Part shown: positions 36,246 through 46,218 of the stretch, one piece after another
Layout: every line of letters starts with the position of its first letter
How positions within the stretch are numbered: position 1 is the stretch's first letter
Assembly: GCA_024231215.1 (NCBI GenBank)
Contig: JAAEQR010000195.1
Coordinates: 363,724 to 427,723 of the forward strand
Direction: 5' to 3'
Length of the DNA stretch: 64,000 nucleotides
DNA from: PVC group bacterium
Lineage (GTDB): Bacteria > Omnitrophota > Gorgyraeia > B26-G9
Notes under the pieces: generated by a model
What the model was told of the DNA's origin: nothing
The model's input: only the letters and a program-made list of their open reading frames with translations
Databases searched by the model: none
Position numbers and translations under genes: made by a program

Positions 36246-36629
36246 ATGGAAAACAATAATAATAGGTTAGAAAGAAGAGCTTATGAACGATTTGATGTTG
36301 GTCTTGAGTTCAAACTTAAGGGTATTGATTTTCATCTGACTGCGGAAACAAAGAATTTAAGCGGTTCCGGGCTTTATTGCCAGGTGGATCGATTTATTCC
36401 GATGATGACCAAGTTGGCCTTAACAATGTTTGTTCCGGGAATTAATAATGGAGAAAAAGCAGAAAAAGAGATCAACTGTGTAGCTGTAGTAATTAGAATT
36501 ATGCCGGAAACAGAACAAGAGTCTTTAGATCGTTATAATATAGGTCTTTTTTTTATAGAAATTGCAGATAAAGATAGGGATTGGCTATTGACCTATATGC
36601 GTCAGGCTTTTTGTGCGGGAAATAATTGA
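36246..36629 (+). CDS. PilZ-domain protein (paralog)
   Basis: RRAYERF and NLSGSGL motifs; start at ATG 36246. Confidence 0.7.
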   Translation: MENNNNRLERRAYERFDVGLEFKLKGIDFHLTAETKNLSGSGLYCQVDRFIPMMTKLALTMFVPGINNGEKAEKEINCVAVVIRIMPETEQESLDRYNIGLFFIEIADKDRDWLLTYMRQAFCAGNN

Positions 36630-36767
36630 TATATTGCGCCTGTCCCGAAAGAAGTGCATCTTTAGAGGATTTCTTCGGGATGCCGAAGAGTTTCAGAAGT
36701 AAGTTTCTACATTCGGCATAGCTCAAAATTAGTAACAAAGCATGATAAAGAAAGTTATTGTTACAAT

Positions 36768-36844
36768 GCGCCTGTAGCTCAATTGGATAGAGCACTAGTC
36801 TTCGGAACTAGGGGTTGGGGGTTCGAGTCTTCCCGGGCGCGCCA
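36768..36844 (+). tRNA. tRNA-Arg (anticodon UCG)
   Basis: manual cloverleaf fold: acceptor GCGCCTG, T-arm GGTTCGAGTC, anticodon loop CTTCGGA, encoded CCA. Confidence 0.85.
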
Positions 36845-36861
36845 ATCGAAGGGCAGATAAA

Positions 36862-36890
36862 TTGACTTTAAGTTTATTTTTTGTTATAAT
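36862..36890 (+). promoter_or_regulatory. sigma70-like promoter ahead of tRNA-Lys
   Basis: TTGACT (36862-36867), 17-nt spacer, TATAAT (36885-36890). Confidence 0.55.
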
Positions 36891-36923
36891 TTAGACTTCT
36901 AAAGTTAGAACATCAGGAGTAAT

Positions 36924-36999
36924 GGGCCGTTAGCTCAATCGGCAGAGCATCTGACTCTTAATCAGGGGGTTGAAGGTTCGATTCCTTCACGGCCCACCA
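36924..36999 (+). tRNA. tRNA-Lys (anticodon CUU)
   Basis: manual fold: acceptor GGGCCGT, anticodon loop CTCTTAA, T-arm GGTTCGATTCC, encoded CCA. Confidence 0.85.
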
Positions 37000-37078
37000 T
37001 TCGACTCGACGCTAAAGCGTCTCGCTCATGGTAAACCAGAGAGAGTGGCGAAGAGTGATAGAAAGACTGTATTGACGG

Positions 37079-37163
37079 GCGGACGTGGCGGAATTGGCAT
37101 ACGCGTGCGGCTTAGGACCGTATCCCTCACGGGATGAGAGTTCGACTCTCTCCGTCCGCACCA
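37079..37163 (+). tRNA. tRNA-Leu (anticodon UAG), long variable arm
   Basis: 85 nt, acceptor GCGGACG/CGTCCGC, anticodon loop CTTAGGA, encoded CCA. Confidence 0.8.
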
Positions 37164-37215
37164 TTCGACTCGAATGCAAAGTCGATAAATATTTATATAG
37201 AATTTTAGCAAATAT

Positions 37216-37290
37216 GCGGCGGTAATTCAGTGGTAGAATGTCTGCTTGCCAAGCAGAATGTCGTGGGTTCGACCCCCATCCGCCGCTCCA
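37216..37290 (+). tRNA. tRNA-Gly (anticodon GCC)
   Basis: acceptor GCGGCGG/CCGCCGC, anticodon loop TTGCCAA, T-arm GGGTTCGACCCCC, encoded CCA. Confidence 0.85.
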
Positions 37291-37306
37291 AAATTGTACC
37301 CCTCTA

Positions 37307-37445
37307 AATGGGGGGCGAAGCAAGCTGAACGCCGAGCAGATGCGAGGATCAGCGAGCAGGACTGCGAGCGGCAGTGAAGCGGGTGGGCCTGCGCAGTCCC
37401 GAATAGGACATTTGGGATGTAGTAGGCGACCCCCATCCGCCGCTC
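37307..37445 (+). ncRNA. candidate small structured RNA or integration scar: GC-rich element closed by GGGGGG...CCCCC helix, ending in a 19-nt copy of the tRNA-Gly 3' end, then a T-run
   Basis: 5' ATGGGGGGCG pairs with 3' CGACCCCCAT; internal 8-bp stem GGACTGCG/CGCAGTCC; 3' GGGATGTAG..CCCCCATCC weakly resembles a small-SRP-RNA 3' end; TATTTTTT follows. Confidence 0.35.
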
Positions 37446-37493
37446 TATTTTTTCCTCTAAGTTCTAATAAAACCAGAAAGTGAGTGAGTATTT

Positions 37494-38777
37494 GTGAAAG
37501 TTAAAGTCAAAAATGCAGAAAAATGTCAGAAAGTTTTAGAAATTGAAGTTCCAAAAGAAACAGTGCAGGCTGAATTCGACACTTATTATAACGAAGTACG
37601 CAAAACAGCCCAAGTTCCCGGATTTAGAAAAGGGAAAGCACCACGTAAAATCCTGGAAGAATATTATGCTGGGAAAGCTTATGAACAAGTGTTGTCTGAT
37701 CTTGTGAATAATCATTATCGAAAAGCCATAGAAAAAGAAAATATTGATACCGTAAGTATGCCGGAAGTTTCTGATGTAGATTTGAATAAAGACGGAAATC
37801 TTACGTTTAAGAGTAAGGTTAATATCCGCCCGCAGTTTAGTTTAAAAGGATATAAGGGGCTAAAGATTAAAAAAGACTCGGTGGAGGTCACTGAAGAGGA
37901 AGTTACTAAGGTTCTTAGCTATTTGCAAGATCGTTATGCGCAGTTTTTACCGATAGAAGGCAGGGCTACGAAGCAGGACGATTATATTATCTGTGACTAT
38001 AGTTATGAAGTAGAAGGAAAGACTATAGAAAAAAAAGATAAAGCATGGTTCTGGTTAGATAAAGAGATGTTTATCCCGGGGCTTTCGAAAGAACTTCAGG
38101 GAGTAAATGCCGGTGATACAAAAGAGTTTGAACTTACTTTGCCGGAAAATTTTCGTCCAGAAGAAGTTGCTAAGAAAAAGGCTAAATTTAAAGTTGTTGT
38201 TAACGAAATAAAAGAAAAAAAACAACCGGAATTAAATGATGAATTTGCTAAAACAGCTGGAAAAAAATCTGTTGATGAGTTGAAACAGCATATAAAAGAT
38301 GATTTAGTCAGAGAAAAAGAAGCACAAGCAAAGCAGACTTTAAAGGCGCAGATAGTAGATGAATTGATAAAAGCAATGCCGATCGATGTGCCTCAGGAAT
38401 TGGTGGACAAAAGAGATAAATTATTGAGAGATACAGCTAGCCAGAAATTAAAACAACAGGGATTGGATGTTCAGCAAATTGAGCAAGAAGAAAAGAAGCT
38501 GGGGGATTATTTTCCTCAGGAAGCTTTGAAACAGATCAGAATATTTTTCATTCTTGAAGAAATAGCTGCGAAAGAAAAAATTACTGTTACCGAAAAAGAG
38601 ATGGAAGAAAGAATCGAGACTATTGCAAAGTCTTACGGACATACCAAAGAAGAAGTTTTGAAGTATTTTTCTGAGAAAAATATGTTGGAAAGTATACATT
38701 GGGAAATATGGGAAGAGAAAGTGATTTCTTTTCTTGTCGATAATGCTAATGTTCAGGGAGTTACTGCGAAATCTTAA
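37494..38777 (+). CDS. tig: trigger factor
   Basis: GTG start; conserved [11 protein letters not shown] ribosome-binding motif; about 427 aa. Confidence 0.92.
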
Positions 38778-42184: not shown

Positions 42185-43648
42185 ATGAAATGTAAACTGT
42201 TTTATTTTATCGCGGTGCTGTTAGGAATAATACTTATTCCTGTGGTTTCCCAAGCAGAACCAACGATCATTAAGGATATCAACATTGATACGGATGGACA
42301 GGTTGTAAAGATTTCTATTATTTCAAACCAGTCTTTTCAGGTAGAAAGTTTTAAAAACGAAGAAGATACGGCTAGTTATATAGTGGTTGATTTTCTAGGT
42401 ACTGTATATACAGATCTTCCCTCGGTTATTAAGGTTGATACCGAGACAGTCGGAAAAATAAATCTTGTGCGGGGAGATGCCGGGCAGATAACTGTAGCGG
42501 GAAAAGATTATCGTACTTTAGATTTTTTAGCGATCATGTTGGAGATTGCAGCGGATTATAATATTGTCCAAGAAGAGACAATATCAAAACTGAATGTTGC
42601 TCCGGTTGGTTCTCTGACAAAACAAAAAGCAGTTGCCTTAGAGCCGCCGATTGTAGTGGCTAAAGTAAAAAAAACAAATATCCAGCCAAAAAAAGAAATT
42701 ATTAAGAAAAAAGAATTTTATGAATCGCCACGTAAGAAAATAAGGAAGAAAAAAGTCAGCAGGAAAAAGACGAAAAAGAAAAAAACAATAAAAAAAGCCA
42801 AGTCTTCTAGAAAGGCTAAGCGTACGCGTGTAACAGACGATGATTTGATTAATAGAATAGTAGAGGAAACAGTTAAGGAAAAAGAAGCAGCTAATGCTCA
42901 GATAGAGGAATTAACTACGCAGTTGCATAAGATGCAGGATGAGCTGAATATTTCTAAGACTGAACAGGCTGAACTGGAAAACCGGATCAATGCAATAATA
43001 TCTAAACTGGATAATTTAAATGATGCTTTAACCGAAGGAATTCGTAAACGTCGTGAGCTGGGAGAACAGGTTGATGATCTGGTTTCCAAGCGGAAGATAT
43101 ATTTAGAAGCAAAGAAAAGATTTGAGTCTTTGCAGGAACAGTTTGCGGAGATAAATGATAAGGTAGAGGTATTGAACGAGGATATCGGAGTTGTTAAAAC
43201 AGACTTAGATGATGCGCTGGTTGAAGAGAAAAAACTCGAGAAAGAATTTGACGCAGCAGATAAGGGATATGAGGATATTAAAACAGAGTATGATGACAAA
43301 TTCAAACAGAAGAAAACAGTAGCTGATAAAGTTTCTGTTTTAAATGAGCAGATCGCAAAGTTGAAAAAACAACTTGGTGACGCATCTGCGAAAAAAGACA
43401 GACTTTCAAATCAATTGAAAAACTTAGAAAGCAAACGCAGGTATAACGAAATTGAACGTATGCGGATAAAAGAAAAGTTAGTTGATAAAAAAGCGCAGAC
43501 TGCAGATCTTTCCCAAAAGCACATGTTGTTCAAACAGGATTTAAGTGCAGCTGTGATAGAACAAGATAAGACGGACAATCTTTATAGAGATGCGGAGTTT
43601 GACTACGAGAAGATACGTTCGGAATTAGAGTCATTTTTAGAGAACTAA
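42185..43648 (+). CDS. secreted AMIN-like domain / lysine-rich / long coiled-coil protein
   Basis: signal peptide; AMIN-like N-domain (ASYIVVDFLGTVY); KKKIRKKKVSRKKTKKKKTIKK; heptad-rich remainder. Confidence 0.6.
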   Translation: MKCKLFYFIAVLLGIILIPVVSQAEPTIIKDINIDTDGQVVKISIISNQSFQVESFKNEEDTASYIVVDFLGTVYTDLPSVIKVDTETVGKINLVRGDAGQITVAGKDYRTLDFLAIMLEIAADYNIVQEETISKLNVAPVGSLTKQKAVALEPPIVVAKVKKTNIQPKKEIIKKKEFYESPRKKIRKKKVSRKKTKKKKTIKKAKSSRKAKRTRVTDDDLINRIVEETVKEKEAANAQIEELTTQLHKMQDELNISKTEQAELENRINAIISKLDNLNDALTEGIRKRRELGEQVDDLVSKRKIYLEAKKRFESLQEQFAEINDKVEVLNEDIGVVKTDLDDALVEEKKLEKEFDAADKGYEDIKTEYDDKFKQKKTVADKVSVLNEQIAKLKKQLGDASAKKDRLSNQLKNLESKRRYNEIERMRIKEKLVDKKAQTADLSQKHMLFKQDLSAAVIEQDKTDNLYRDAEFDYEKIRSELESFLEN

Positions 43649-43695: not shown

Positions 43696-46218
43696 ATGAG
43701 GAAACGATTTGCCCGGTTATTAATATTTACCGTAGTTATCTTATGTGGATATTGTAATGTGCAACTTTTTGCTGAGCCGGTTATAATGACAGAAGTGGAG
43801 ATAACCGAGGGCAGTGATGCAGTCAAGATGTTGTTTTCGACCAATAAATCGATTCCAATTGAATGTTATGATTTGAGCACTCCGCCACAAATCATTATTG
43901 ATTTCATGGGAGAAATATACACTGATGGTGCTGAGATAATAACGGTTGATAAGGGAGCGGTTAAACAGATACGCATTATTAAAGGGACCCGGGATTCTCA
44001 AACTCTGGACAAATCTTATTATTCCATGGATTTTTTAATTGTTGATCTTAAAGAGCCTTTACGATATGACTTTAGTCAGGGGCTTACTACCGCGATTTTG
44101 GTTATATCAAAGCCGGGTAAAATGGTAACAGCGAGTATTCCCAGTACCAAGGTATCAATGTCCGAGGTTGAAGTTAAGGCGGAGATTCCTGTAGAAAAAG
44201 TAGAGATAGAAGAAAAGCCAGAGCCGGTGGTTATTGCCAAGAAGGCTGATCCAGTGCAGCTTGAAGAAAAAGAATATGATATGCCGGCACCTATTCCTGC
44301 GGCTGCTCCGATGCCAAGGGCGAAAGAGGACGGAAAAGTTAAAAAAGGAGCGAAAGCTGTTGGACGTGGTATAGCTGGTGTAGGTAAGGGGATAAAGAAT
44401 TTTTTCTTTGGGAATAAAAAGAAAAAAGATGCAAAAAAAGAAGATCTGAAGAAAAAAGAGGAAGAGAAAAAAGAGGAAGAGAAAAAAGAGGTAAAAAAGA
44501 ACAAAAGAAGAAAGAAAAAAGAAGTAAAACCGCAAAAGAAAAAGACTGTAAAGAAAAAAACCGAGAAGAAAAAGGAAATAGCGCGTAAGAAAAAATCTCC
44601 AGCCAAGAAGAAAATTAACACTAAGAAATTTAAAACAGCTTTATCTCGAGCTGAAAAAAAGCTGAAAGCAGCGAAAAAGGAATATGAAGAATGTAAAGCA
44701 GAGACCGAACGCCTTGAACGGAAGCTTGCGGATACAAAAAAAGAATTAACTCAGGCTAAACAGGATCAGAAAAATAATAATAAAAATATACCTGTAACTA
44801 GAAAGAAAAAAGAAAAGGCTGAACGTGAATTTGAAAAAAGTTTAAAGGATGCTGAATCGGCAAAGAATAAAGCCAATGCTATCTGGGTGGAATATTCACG
44901 ATCTAAAGAGGAGCTGAGTTTGCTATTAGAAAAAAATGCCAAGAAACAATTTATTGCGGATAAACAGAAAAGGTATGATAAGAAAAAGAACGAGTTAGAA
45001 GCGGCAATAAAGAGTGCTGAGGCAGCAAAATCAGAGAGTAATAAGAAACTTGACAAATACACTTTGGCTAAGGAAAACCTAGAGAAACTGTTGAGTAGTT
45101 CTAAGCCCTCTGAGCAGAAATTGAATTTATTGCAGAGTAAATATGAGGTAACCGAAGAGGAACTTACTATTGCAAGACAGAAAATGAATAATGCGCAGCA
45201 AAAATTATCCGAAGCAGAGAGATTTTATAAAAAATGTGAATTAGAAAAATCGGACGCAGAATACAGAGCATCAATGATGAAAATGGATGCAACCATGGGA
45301 GCGGATAAGTCTGCAATTGAAGCAGCACCTGTTTATGTAGAAGTAGAATCGAAATATGATGCCCGGGAAGCTAGAAAAGCTGAGCTGGCTAAGAAAAAAG
45401 AAGAAAAGCGAAAAGCTAAAGAGGCTAAAATAGCAAAGCTGGCAAGAAAACGCGAGGAAGTTAGGAAGAAAAAGAAAGAGAGAAAGGCAGAATTGGCCAG
45501 GAAAAAAGAAGAAAAGCGAAAAGCTAAAAAGGCTAAGAAAGCAGAATTGGCAGAGGCCAGAGAAGAGGAAAGAAAGGCCGAAGCAGCTAAGAGAATGGGG
45601 GCAGTTAGAAAGAGTGAAGAGCAAAAACAAGCAGAAGAAGCAGAACGAATTGAACAGGCTAAGCTGGCTGCGCAGGAAGCAGCATTGCAAAAACTGATGG
45701 CTCAAAACAAAGATGCATCAGTTATCGCAGAGGAAACTAAGGTTGAAGAAGTAAAACCAGTTATAGTGAAACCCAAACGGAGAAAAAAGTCTAATTTAGG
45801 GACAACTCCTAAAGTAGCTAAACAAAAATCATCGAAAGAAGAAGTTCTTAAAGCTGCAGTAGAATTGCGTAATGCCGGACTTGAAATGCAGAGGAACGGG
45901 AATATGGACGGAGCGATGAGGTTTTATCAGAAGGCATTGATGAGTGATCCCCAATACGCTACTGTGTATAATGATTTAGGAATACTATATGAGCAAAAAG
46001 GATTGGATGATAAGGCCAAAATGGAATACATTAAGGCTTTAAAAATTAATTCGCATTATATAAAAGCACATAGTAATTTGGCGCTTTTATATGAAAAATT
46101 GGGAGATGATAAGAAAGCTTATTATCATTGGAAACAGAGGGCAGAGTTGGGAGATCCCAACGATCCCTGGACAAATAAAGCTGCAGAAAAACTTAAAGAA
46201 ATTGAGCAGAGAAAGTGA
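43696..46218 (+). CDS. paralogous secreted AMIN-like / K-rich / coiled-coil protein with TolA-like A/K/E repeats and C-terminal TPR repeats
   Basis: signal peptide; AMIN-like PPQIIIDFMGEIY; 28-nt exact DNA repeat (45396-45424 and 45504-45532) encoding ELA(K/R)KKEEKRKAK; TPR-like AMRFYQKAL...YNDLGILYEQKG. Confidence 0.6.
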   Translation: MRKRFARLLIFTVVILCGYCNVQLFAEPVIMTEVEITEGSDAVKMLFSTNKSIPIECYDLSTPPQIIIDFMGEIYTDGAEIITVDKGAVKQIRIIKGTRDSQTLDKSYYSMDFLIVDLKEPLRYDFSQGLTTAILVISKPGKMVTASIPSTKVSMSEVEVKAEIPVEKVEIEEKPEPVVIAKKADPVQLEEKEYDMPAPIPAAAPMPRAKEDGKVKKGAKAVGRGIAGVGKGIKNFFFGNKKKKDAKKEDLKKKEEEKKEEEKKEVKKNKRRKKKEVKPQKKKTVKKKTEKKKEIARKKKSPAKKKINTKKFKTALSRAEKKLKAAKKEYEECKAETERLERKLADTKKELTQAKQDQKNNNKNIPVTRKKKEKAEREFEKSLKDAESAKNKANAIWVEYSRSKEELSLLLEKNAKKQFIADKQKRYDKKKNELEAAIKSAEAAKSESNKKLDKYTLAKENLEKLLSSSKPSEQKLNLLQSKYEVTEEELTIARQKMNNAQQKLSEAERFYKKCELEKSDAEYRASMMKMDATMGADKSAIEAAPVYVEVESKYDAREARKAELAKKKEEKRKAKEAKIAKLARKREEVRKKKKERKAELARKKEEKRKAKKAKKAELAEAREEERKAEAAKRMGAVRKSEEQKQAEEAERIEQAKLAAQEAALQKLMAQNKDASVIAEETKVEEVKPVIVKPKRRKKSNLGTTPKVAKQKSSKEEVLKAAVELRNAGLEMQRNGNMDGAMRFYQKALMSDPQYATVYNDLGILYEQKGLDDKAKMEYIKALKINSHYIKAHSNLALLYEKLGDDKKAYYHWKQRAELGDPNDPWTNKAAEKLKEIEQRK

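Follow-up and report, generated by a model that had tools for sequence, protein, structure and literature searches.

Casposons insert at the 3' ends of transfer RNA (tRNA) genes, and the transposed tRNA introns of the Thermoproteales are short, related insertions at non-canonical sites, including the T-loop, of different tRNA genes. In the reRNA of TnpB, a scaffold is followed by a guide that is identical to the target. The eukaryotic Dada DNA transposons are specialised on small-RNA genes (PMC8869645), and the attP core of mycobacteriophage Ms6 recombines with an attB in the T-loop of tRNA-Ala (PMC1762012). Here, a stretch of 64 kb (the window) from the contig JAAEQR010000195.1 of assembly GCA_024231215.1 is analysed. 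Its tRNA-Gly gene is directly followed by a segment (37308-37447) that belongs, as one copy among several, to a group of small elements without open reading frames (ORFs) in Candidatus Omnitrophota, which have no match in Rfam 15. The order from 5' to 3' is an intact tRNA, its trailer, an inverted block, a core and a second copy of the tRNA from C56. No description of such an element was found in the literature, and to our knowledge there is no other element with target-derived direct and inverted repeats around a covarying RNA at one exact T-loop position of many tRNAs.

As in the T-loop integrative elements, the Omnitrophota element would be an insertion at a tRNA gene, with a direct repeat from the T-loop to the 3' end or beyond and an intact tRNA. 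Unlike them, it has no integrase or cargo in ten copies, one core serves five tRNA species, and it includes an interior that covaries as RNA, an inverted copy of the T-loop and T-stem, and a repeat of variable length which includes the trailer. It shares with short interspersed nuclear elements (SINEs), ORF-less group II introns and retrozymes the short length, the lack of ORFs, the multiple copies, one precise and one variable junction, a long variable duplication, an RNA fold and, presumably, co-transcription. In contrast to these, it has no known partner reverse transcriptase, no poly(A) or long interspersed nuclear element (LINE)-type tail, and no group II domains or hammerhead (Rfam was negative), and none of them has an equivalent of its target-matched inverted block. 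As in miniature inverted-repeat transposable elements (MITEs) and SINEs, there are several copies per genome at different loci (five at two loci of one assembly) and a target-site duplication.

The fixed position in the tRNA gene and the target duplication are also found in Dada and casposons; however, those encode a transposase or casposase and have terminal inverted repeats of their own, with short duplications of a fixed length (6-7 or 14-15 bp), whereas the duplication here is of about 36 nt or more, the "inverted repeat" is derived from the target and there is no ORF. The omega RNAs of TnpB/IscB and the bridge RNAs of IS110 similarly join a structured scaffold to a target-identical segment, with segments matching both target strands. 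They differ from the Omnitrophota element, which has neither a protein gene nor an Rfam match, shows a target duplication, and has two target segments that cover the same nucleotides and pair with each other. The Thermoproteales introns are excised at a bulge-helix-bulge by the archaeal splicing endonuclease and have no exon duplication, whereas the Omnitrophota element has a bacterial host and an upstream tRNA that needs no splicing to be complete. Each family open to testing has a tested defining feature that the element lacks, and the element is filed under the non-autonomous, site-specific elements at tRNA genes. That its mechanism is categorically new is a tentative thought, which we consider rather doubtful.

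The tRNA-Gly locus and the element family

The tRNA-Gly gene is the last of a cluster with the order tRNA-Arg, tRNA-Lys, tRNA-Leu and tRNA-Gly, followed by the trigger factor gene tig (37494-38777) and clpP. The original prediction, made from the letters of the window, had pointed to a GC-rich segment behind tRNA-Gly, and this is borne out by the G+C content, which is 0.58-0.66 over 37250-37449 and about 0.28-0.42 in spacers and coding DNA nearby. The sequence CGACCCCCATCCGCCGCTC has two exact occurrences in the window and no more (37270-37288 and 37427-37445), with a chance expectation of none even at three mismatches. It had been described as a duplicate of the last 19 nt of the tRNA; the 19-nt repeat is exact, but it corresponds to nt 56-74 of tRNA-Gly, as the gene goes on with CA, and it extends to 21 nt, reaching A76, when one mismatch is allowed. 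The second copy is followed by TATTTTTT, as stated before. The 5' part of the segment can also pair with its 3' part, as had been claimed, with ATGGGGGGCG (37308-37317) being 90% complementary to CGACCCCCAT (37427-36). The same ATGGGGGGCG is 92% complementary over 12 nt to TTCGACCCCCAT inside tRNA-Gly, i.e., better than to the repeat. The locus is composed of the following parts.

37216-37290, + strand: intact tRNA-Gly(GCC) with encoded CCA, the target or host gene (ARAGORN; Rfam tRNA, 68.8 bits)
37270-37307, + strand: first copy of the putatively duplicated target, with tRNA nt 56-76 (37270-37290), of which the first 19 nt form the exact repeat, and a 17-nt trailer
37308-37319, + strand: inverted block ATGGGGGGCGAA, which apart from a mismatch opposite A58 is the reverse complement of TTCGACCCCCAT (tRNA nt 54-65); 5' strand of the closing helix P1
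37320-37426, + strand: conserved core of 107 nt, ending in an invariant GG; covariance-model score of 145.7 bits
37427-37461, + strand: second copy of the putatively duplicated target, with tRNA nt 56-76 (19 nt exact, CUCUA for CUCCA), a T-run and the decayed trailer CCTCTAA

Several relatives have about 90 nt between tRNA-Gly and tig, against 204 nt in the window, while the synteny of the tRNA cluster, tig and clpP is kept. Because this spacer is shorter in the relatives, the GC-rich segment is taken as an insertion relative to them. The nearest relatives of the window trigger factor belong to Candidatus Omnitrophota, with 54-62% identity.

The search for further copies covered the spacers of relatives, one metagenome pattern scan and the contigs of trigger-factor homologues, and then used a profile and a covariance model (R1) built from eight copies. 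The spacer behind tRNA-Arg in the contig L002 has a homologous stretch that ends in a copy of the tRNA-Arg T arm (nhmmer against the window, E = 1e-7). With the profile and the covariance model, 10 copies were found at 51-158 bits, on seven Omnitrophota contigs from six assemblies or metagenomes, and 37308-37447 is the only copy within the 64-kb window according to the covariance model. All ten lie directly 3' of a tRNA gene, in the orientation of the tRNA, with tRNA-Gly, tRNA-Lys, tRNA-Val, tRNA-Leu and tRNA-Arg as hosts. The copies are distributed as follows.

Window: one copy, behind tRNA-Gly
L025: one copy, behind tRNA-Gly, at the same site; the nearest relative found
L043: one copy, behind tRNA-Gly
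L041: three copies, behind tRNA-Gly (L041c), tRNA-Lys (L041b) and a tRNA-Lys pseudogene (L041a)
L023: two copies, behind tRNA-Leu-TAA (L023a) and tRNA-Val (L023b); same assembly as L041, GCA_004196255.1
L024: one copy, a long variant, behind tRNA-Leu-TAA
L002: one copy, a long variant, behind tRNA-Arg

The copies of L002 and L024 are longer and have extra hairpins. The assembly GCA_004196255.1 holds at least five copies at two loci (L023 and L041), where four of the seven tRNAs have an intact copy. At the tig locus, at least one copy is present in 5 of the 17 contigs of the tig tree, which fall in two places on the tree; 11 of the 16 sufficiently complete related tig loci are without the element, the upstream part of the 17th (L005) being too truncated to be scored. 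The length differences in L031 (2562-2661) and L032 (1715-1813), among them a "missing" tRNA-Leu, are scaffolding artefacts, consisting of N runs next to which a flank is duplicated.

Two loci show incomplete copies. In L041 (1517-1725), the copy L041a interrupts the T-loop of the tRNA-Lys pseudogene; its first repeat is absent, being replaced by the perfect 8-bp hairpin GTTGAGCC-TTT-GGCTCAAC, and its second repeat is decayed (CGATTTTTTCACGGCCAGCC). The next gene, 160 nt further on, is an intact tRNA-Lys that has an element of its own. L043 has a truncated second 5' part, GGGATTCGAAGCAAGCGAATGCCGACC, at 2446-2478, about 25 nt before the start of tig and about 165 nt downstream of the complete copy, which may be a remnant of an earlier insertion at the same tRNA.

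The second repeat starts exactly at C56, after the GG of the core, in all ten copies, and in the nine copies with an intact upstream tRNA it matches that tRNA. In the eight copies that were tabulated, this match is exact over 18-33 nt, and the two repeats are spaced by 149-157 nt in the seven compact copies with an intact tRNA; in L002 the repeat (9 + 8 nt) is interrupted by a hairpin of about 80 nt. At T-stem pair 50-64, which is U-A in one and A-U in the other of the window and L025, both repeat copies carry the nucleotide of their own genome. The trailer between the tRNA and the inverted block is AT-rich and of about 15 nt, or 51 nt in L024. The inverted block is the reverse complement of nt 54 to about 64 of the local tRNA, perfect over 9-11 nt in five copies behind tRNA-Gly, tRNA-Lys, tRNA-Val and tRNA-Leu (GGGATTCGAA, TGGGATTCGAA, AAGGAATCGAA, AGGGCTCGAA and GGAGTCGAA). 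Its end reads ...CGAA, with the complement of U54, in eight of ten copies, the different ones being L041a (TCAA) and L002 (GAGAA). Homology of the 5' block to the 5' strand of the T-stem, as in a duplicated and decayed tRNA, was considered and rejected, the block being a literal reverse complement of the loop and the 3' stem.

The far end of the repeat varies. In L024 the exact repeat goes on for 12 nt past CCA, with a weaker similarity up to the next tRNA (reached by 1 of 2000 shuffles). In L023b, 11 of the 15 trailer positions recur in register behind the second copy, and the trailer ...CCTCTAA of the window recurs after its second copy, which is suggestive, as 61 of 2000 shuffles were as good. 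The tRNA-Leu of L023 has no encoded CCA and its second copy likewise lacks it. An origin of the second repeat from a mature tRNA (a 3' tRNA fragment) was rejected, since the CCA-less pair of L023 and the trailer carried over in L024 indicate a duplication from DNA or from a precursor. The point T55|C56 (window 37270-37273) falls at T^CGA of a TCGA palindrome present in every T-loop examined, which is a TaqI/BstBI-type cleavage position. The right junction reads GGCGA, so that the TCGA site is lost there.

Fold, conservation and transcription of the element RNA

For the fold, eight copies were aligned with MAFFT without fitting to structure, and the scored structure was completed manually from the RNAalifold consensus, which gave the same helices on four and then on eight copies. 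In the window copy, the predicted parts are as follows.

37308-37319 with 37428-37434, + strand: helix P1, formed by the inverted block with nt 57-63 of the second copy; the pairing is extendable to nt 65 in the window copy
37324-30 / 37374-80, + strand: helix P2, which encloses hairpins C and D
37332-47, + strand: hairpin C
37352-69, + strand: hairpin D, with an invariant AGGA loop
37381-86, + strand: purine-rich joiner
37387-92 / 37422-27, + strand: helix E; C56 of the second copy takes part in its last pair
37396-37418, + strand: hairpin F, variable, with AGGA in six of eight copies

A multi-helix fold of the + strand is shown by the alignment to be strongly supported by covariation. For the whole fold, the share of cells with standard pairs is 93.6%, and it falls to 27-43% on sliding the partners by 1-3 columns; a compensatory change is found in 19 of the 34 pairs, and none of 500 shuffles reached any of the five measures. 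In P1, four of the seven pairs have a compensatory change and 91% of the cells are paired. G-U occupies 18 cells and A-C only one, which indicates that the folding strand is the tRNA-sense strand. As a single copy, the + strand has a minimum free energy (MFE) of -71.4 kcal/mol (z = -3.5, 0 of 200 shuffles as good), and the - strand of the segment is weaker (z = -1.7). The suggestion that the segment is a small structured RNA thus holds for the + strand fold, although not for its identification with the signal recognition particle (SRP, 4.5S) RNA, which is treated below.

Tandem G.A mismatches (GAGC/GCGA) are present in P2, C, D and, in most copies, F. The GCGAGCAG-type ("GCGAG") sub-repeats reported in the first description are present and can be recast as the two arms of small hairpins with these mismatches. 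An 8-bp stem, GGACTGCG/CGCAGTCC, also proposed there, can form in the window copy, but the other copies do not have it and it competes with the helices that covary in the family. Similarly, the acceptor-like pairing GAGCGGC/GCCGCUC of the window MFE fold was dismissed as it is absent in other copies. In MFE folds of the tRNA together with the element, the 5' strands of the tRNA acceptor and T-stem pair with the second copy, and the first copy, inverted block and core become a T-loop insertion of about 155 nt, which follows a U and ends in the invariant G. Formally, these models would make the locus a tRNA gene with a T-loop "intron" of about 155 nt that carries a spare 3' exon, which is regarded as a formal curiosity.

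The cores of the window and L025 have 107 nt each and are 89% identical without any indel. Several of the 12 differences are compensatory, including A-U to G-C in P2 and, for hairpin F, both A-U to C-G and G-U to G-C. Between the same two genomes, the tRNAs are 94-97% identical, the spacer and inverted block 79%, the trigger factor 62%, and other intergenic DNA 30-48% in a forced global alignment. Among the eight aligned copies, the core identity is 54-89%, and the core tree has a subfamily A (window, L025, L041b-Lys and L023b-Val) and a subfamily B (L043-Gly, L041c-Gly and L023a-Leu). Behind tRNA-Gly, subfamily A is found in the window and L025 and subfamily B in L041 and L043, and GCA_004196255.1 holds both. 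Within this assembly, L041c (Gly) and L023a (Leu) are 88% identical, with identical E-F halves; the 5' half of L041c groups with its positional counterpart in L043, and its 3' half is that of L023a. Because of these mosaic cores and the patchy occupancy of the tig tree, repeated insertion and/or gene conversion is favoured over one ancient event.

One promoter-like site was found in 36600-37600, and none between the element and tig.

36862-36890, + strand: predicted sigma-70-like promoter, with TTGACT, a spacing of 17 nt with TG, and TATAAT; 11 of 12 consensus matches

To judge from its sequence, this promoter probably drives a unit of tRNA-Lys, tRNA-Leu, tRNA-Gly and the element, and TTGACC ... 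TATAAT is also present before tRNA-Lys in L002 and L010. The terminator scan gave no terminator-like site between the element and tig. A T-run follows the element in the window (TATTTTTT) and in L025 (ATTTTTT), and the other copies are without it. In L041, the ribosome-binding site and start codon of tig are within about 22 nt of the second repeat copy.

Proposed origin and rival explanations

The element probably originated by insertion with target duplication. As to the whole, we lean, by a modest measure, towards an ORF-less element that was inserted at the T-loop with duplication of its target, is co-transcribed with the tRNA and is kept as a folded RNA. In this proposal, a unit of inverted block and core (about 120 nt; 37308-37426 in the window) would have entered the T-loop DNA between nt 55 and 56 through a staggered break, with a precise side at 55|56 and a variable side downstream of the gene. 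On repair, the 3' part of the gene and some trailer would have been duplicated (about 36 nt here, more in L024); therefore, a complete tRNA remains upstream. The family would then have colonised several tRNA species, and the copies within a genome would have exchanged sequence. As there is neither a promoter- nor a terminator-like site between the element and tig, the element would be read through from the promoter of the tRNA operon. The + strand RNA forms a junction in which the inverted block pairs with the 3' strand of the duplicated T-arm (P1), P1 is stacked on E and P2 bears two hairpins. Selection would preserve this folded RNA, which is the weakest step of the proposal; the RNA might be an intermediate or guide of its own spread (retroelement-like or RNA-guided), or a domesticated tRNA-linked small RNA. 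One precise and one variable junction, together with a long and variable duplication, would fit a target-primed insertion better than a cut-and-paste transposase or an integrase.

Several observations weigh against this proposal. No transposase, reverse transcriptase, integrase or nuclease gene was found in or beside the ten copies, no ORF or cargo was found within them (about 120-300 nt), so that the autonomous partner required by a mobile element is missing, and no filled and empty alleles were seen among close strains. The copies are old; those of the window and L025 look vertically inherited and selected, which would equally suit an RNA useful to the host. The match of the inverted block to each tRNA does not follow from a simple insertion with target duplication; the block could be templated at insertion, corrected by template switching in a hairpin with the tRNA arm, or act as a guide in the choice of the target. 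In the window, L025 and L024, the block has GCGAA in place of the perfectly complementary TCGAA, and since this GCGAA is inherited, the block is not fully re-templated at each insertion. Additionally, nt 65-76 of the second copy are outside the fold and nearly identical to the tRNA, and the element persists despite close direct repeats, and the proposal accounts for neither.

Known RNAs were searched with Rfam 15 at gathering thresholds on the 64-kb window, permissively at E<=10 on 37150-37520, and at E<=5 on three contigs that together hold four further copies, that of L026 being identical to the orthologous copy of L025. At gathering thresholds, four tRNAs and nothing else were found in the 64 kb. 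A weak match to RF02682 (HDV-F-prausnitzii, of the hepatitis delta virus (HDV)-like ribozymes) was obtained at 37282-37347 (20.5 bits, E = 0.12, gathering score of 44). An HDV-like ribozyme was rejected here, since two P1 pairs are missing, the match begins inside the acceptor stem and it does not recur in the copies of L026, L023 and L024; by these sequence criteria, the match is treated as chance. The junctions follow U55 and an invariant G and so coincide with the splice-site rule of group I introns. The group I intron model (RF00028) has no match in the Rfam searches of the window and of 37150-37520, the core has just 107 nt, the upstream tRNA is complete without splicing, and there is no other support for splicing. 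A retron msr-msd was also set aside, as the closing helix P1 exists but is tRNA-derived and no ORF follows any copy. As for mobile DNA, blastn against 50,697 phage and 72,556 plasmid records gave no match; a loose viral pattern scan gave 12 chance matches in coding DNA, and a tighter one gave 6 matches on viral contigs, none of which fits the covariance model. The Pfam scan of 20 window ORFs found housekeeping genes and no mobility gene, and the genes neighbouring the copies are tig, clpP, thrS and other tRNAs.

The two interpretations offered originally were a scar of integration and a small stable RNA resembling 4.5S RNA. In the form of the first that is weighed here, a tyrosine integrase would have acted at the T-loop and 3' end of tRNA-Gly, the 19-nt copies being the attL/attR cores of a deleted island or prophage. 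A repeat from the T-loop to the 3' end is typical of T-loop integrases such as that of Ms6 and is present in all ten copies, and the relatives without the segment have the shorter spacer (about 90 against 204 nt); this much of the interpretation stands. However, the approximately 120 nt between the repeats are themselves the conserved unit, and L025 has the same segment at its tRNA-Gly with no island. A lost-island scar is rejected because this interior recurs without cargo behind five kinds of tRNA and is 89% identical without indel in L025, a conservation maintained since a deep split. All copies are minimal and gene-free (about 120-300 nt), their interior is homologous across tRNA targets and covaries as RNA, which is not expected of arm sites, and the phage and plasmid records gave no match. 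Moreover, GUAGUAGG, to the left of the second copy, is element-specific, so that the T-loop would be 2 nt short, against an identical overlap if the crossover was in the 5' part of the loop. The scar is thus largely refuted and very improbable. The chances of a known RNA, be it SRP RNA as in the second interpretation or an HDV-like ribozyme that processes the tRNA 3' end, are close to nil. The GGGGG/CCCCC helix and GGGAUGUAG are superficially like E. coli 4.5S RNA, and there is the weak RF02682 match; but GGGGG/CCCCC is simply that of the tRNA-Gly T-stem and differs in copies behind other tRNAs, the SRP models (RF00169, RF01854) had no match at E<=10 in 37150-37520 nor at E<=5 on the three contigs with four further copies, and the HDV match is far under its gathering score of 44 and does not recur. 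Bacterial small SRP RNA has a single essential gene per genome, with ends independent of the neighbouring genes. The element does not fit an ffs gene, since it is multi-copy in one genome (at least five in GCA_004196255.1) with the ends of each copy taken from the adjacent tRNA. At the level of sequence and structure models, an SRP or HDV identity is refuted. An intrinsic terminator of the tRNA operon, formed by a GC-rich hairpin and a T-run, is hardly credible either. The window and L025 do have the T-run, and GAGCGGC/GCCGCUC pairs before it in the window MFE fold, yet the scan finds no terminator, the other copies have no T-run, this pairing is not conserved, and a terminator needs neither a covarying multi-helix core of 107 nt nor tRNA-specific ends. 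The guide RNA of a transposon (omega/reRNA, bridge or seek RNA) was also considered, with the core as scaffold, about 20 nt derived from the tRNA as guide, the GGTT that immediately precedes C56 as adjacent motif and a protein acting in trans. As in TnpB reRNAs, a scaffold (of about 110 nt) is followed by about 20 nt identical to the flanking target; one scaffold goes with a different target-derived 3' segment in each copy, this segment is conserved beyond the need of the fold, and the region of hairpin F is identical in three copies of one genome, as if it had one genome-specific partner. It is nevertheless improbable, because no tnpB, iscB or IS110-type gene was found beside any copy or in the scanned parts of the window, the omega-RNA models (IS605-orfB, HEARO and related) had no Rfam match in the window or the three other contigs, and a target duplication is present where IS200/IS605 insertion makes none. 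The first 9 nt of the would-be guide are also base-paired in P1 and E, and it would target its own locus, with the intact tRNA gene adjoining.

A further explanation is a host-domesticated, tRNA-linked small RNA, immobile, with an ancient mobile origin, which would be freed by tRNA processing and act in trans or in cis. It could be a protein scaffold through its AGGA loop(s), a mimic or competitor of the 3' part of the tRNA, or a switch in which the inverted block pairs with the T arm or with the duplicate. This is possible and on balance doubtful. Between the window and L025, the core has a tRNA-like conservation, in contrast to flanking spacers that cannot be aligned, the fold covaries strongly, and AGGA is retained in hairpin D throughout and in hairpin F in most copies (6/8). 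Direct repeats of 21-36 nt at about 150 nt from each other would be expected to favour deletion, yet the element persists; the second repeat is tRNA-identical beyond the need of the fold, and four of seven tRNAs at two loci of one genome have an intact copy. On the other hand, the element is patchy, with 11 of 16 tig loci lacking it; the subfamilies at the same tRNA differ across genomes and copies within a genome are mosaic; truncated and pseudogene-associated copies exist (L041a and L043 2446-2478); no function can be named from the sequence; and a crude pattern, which is a weak test, gave no CsrA-like gene in the window. CsrA is the partner of the CsrB/Rsm-type protein-sponge RNAs, which have repeated GGA motifs in their hairpin loops. 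The identity at nt 65-76, the persistence of the repeats and the tRNA-like conservation keep a host function alive as an explanation, and a mobile origin and a host RNA overlap as readings.

Beyond the insertion of an ORF-less element proposed here, the element may be a mobile or recombining unit of a new, RNA-based kind, which would find the tRNA T arm through base pairing, a speculative extension that we hold to be unlikely. The 5' block would pair with nt 54-64 of the tRNA gene or transcript, and the invariant 3'-terminal G would be joined to C56. The RNA would itself contribute to the cleavage and joining at U55|C56, either being a small ribozyme or guiding an unknown enzyme; the copies seen in the genomes would have been fixed as products of this reaction, with the duplicated 3' "exon" rendering the insertion harmless.

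Other tRNA-trailer modules and significance of the family

Other modules were observed behind tRNA genes of the window and related contigs. One of them, a second conserved module, is present in the window (36997-37075 and 37160-37176), L032 (2293-2470, with two tandem copies), L043 (1921-1975) and L046 (from 1444). It has, right after CCA, the T-loop-like TTCGACTCG, a small hairpin and CTCGCTCATGG, and fuller copies add GAGTCGAATG, the complement of its start. Behind the tRNA-Leu of the window it is shrunk to the palindrome CATTCGA-C-TCGAATG, which includes the CA of CCA. A third trailer module lies behind tRNA-Leu(TAG) in L002 (3618-3760), L004 (3677-3800) and L041 (2179-2235), and behind tRNA-Lys in L010 (3514-3560 and 3720-3830). 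It consists of the hairpin CCAT(A/G)AACC...GGTT(T/C)ATGG, including the CCA end of the tRNA, often followed by a GCCCTGTA...TACAGGGCAA hairpin. A longer tRNA-Arg element was seen in L032 (1864-2085), with the same in L031 and L033-L037, and its 5' part also in L032 (2737-2790) and L010 (3201-3260). Its 5' AAGGACGAGAA resembles the complement of a T-arm, and after its 3' end, ...GCGAACGACG, tRNA-Arg is repeated over 24 nt from T54 onwards. The covariance model R1 does not detect it, and its last 13 nt or so resemble the end of hairpin F of the main family.

Elsewhere in the window, an adenylosuccinate synthetase-like gene is present at 46.2-47.5 kb. Downstream of a serA-like gene there are an ORF of 487 aa (42185-43648) with no Pfam match at E<=1e-8, and an ORF of 840 aa (43696-46218) with a TPR repeat as its sole Pfam match.

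The element adds a new, well-supported family of structured RNA from Omnitrophota, a phylum of which little is known, and its covariance model can be used directly for a census. Partial tRNA repeats do not in every case mark the border of an island, and island finders that are based on such repeats would mis-call loci of this kind. If the inverted block is a guide, it would represent a compact system that targets the most conserved sequence in biology, and it would make testable how a parasite lives in essential genes harmlessly. If the element is instead a host small RNA, one per tRNA gene, it would point to an unknown layer of tRNA-linked regulation.

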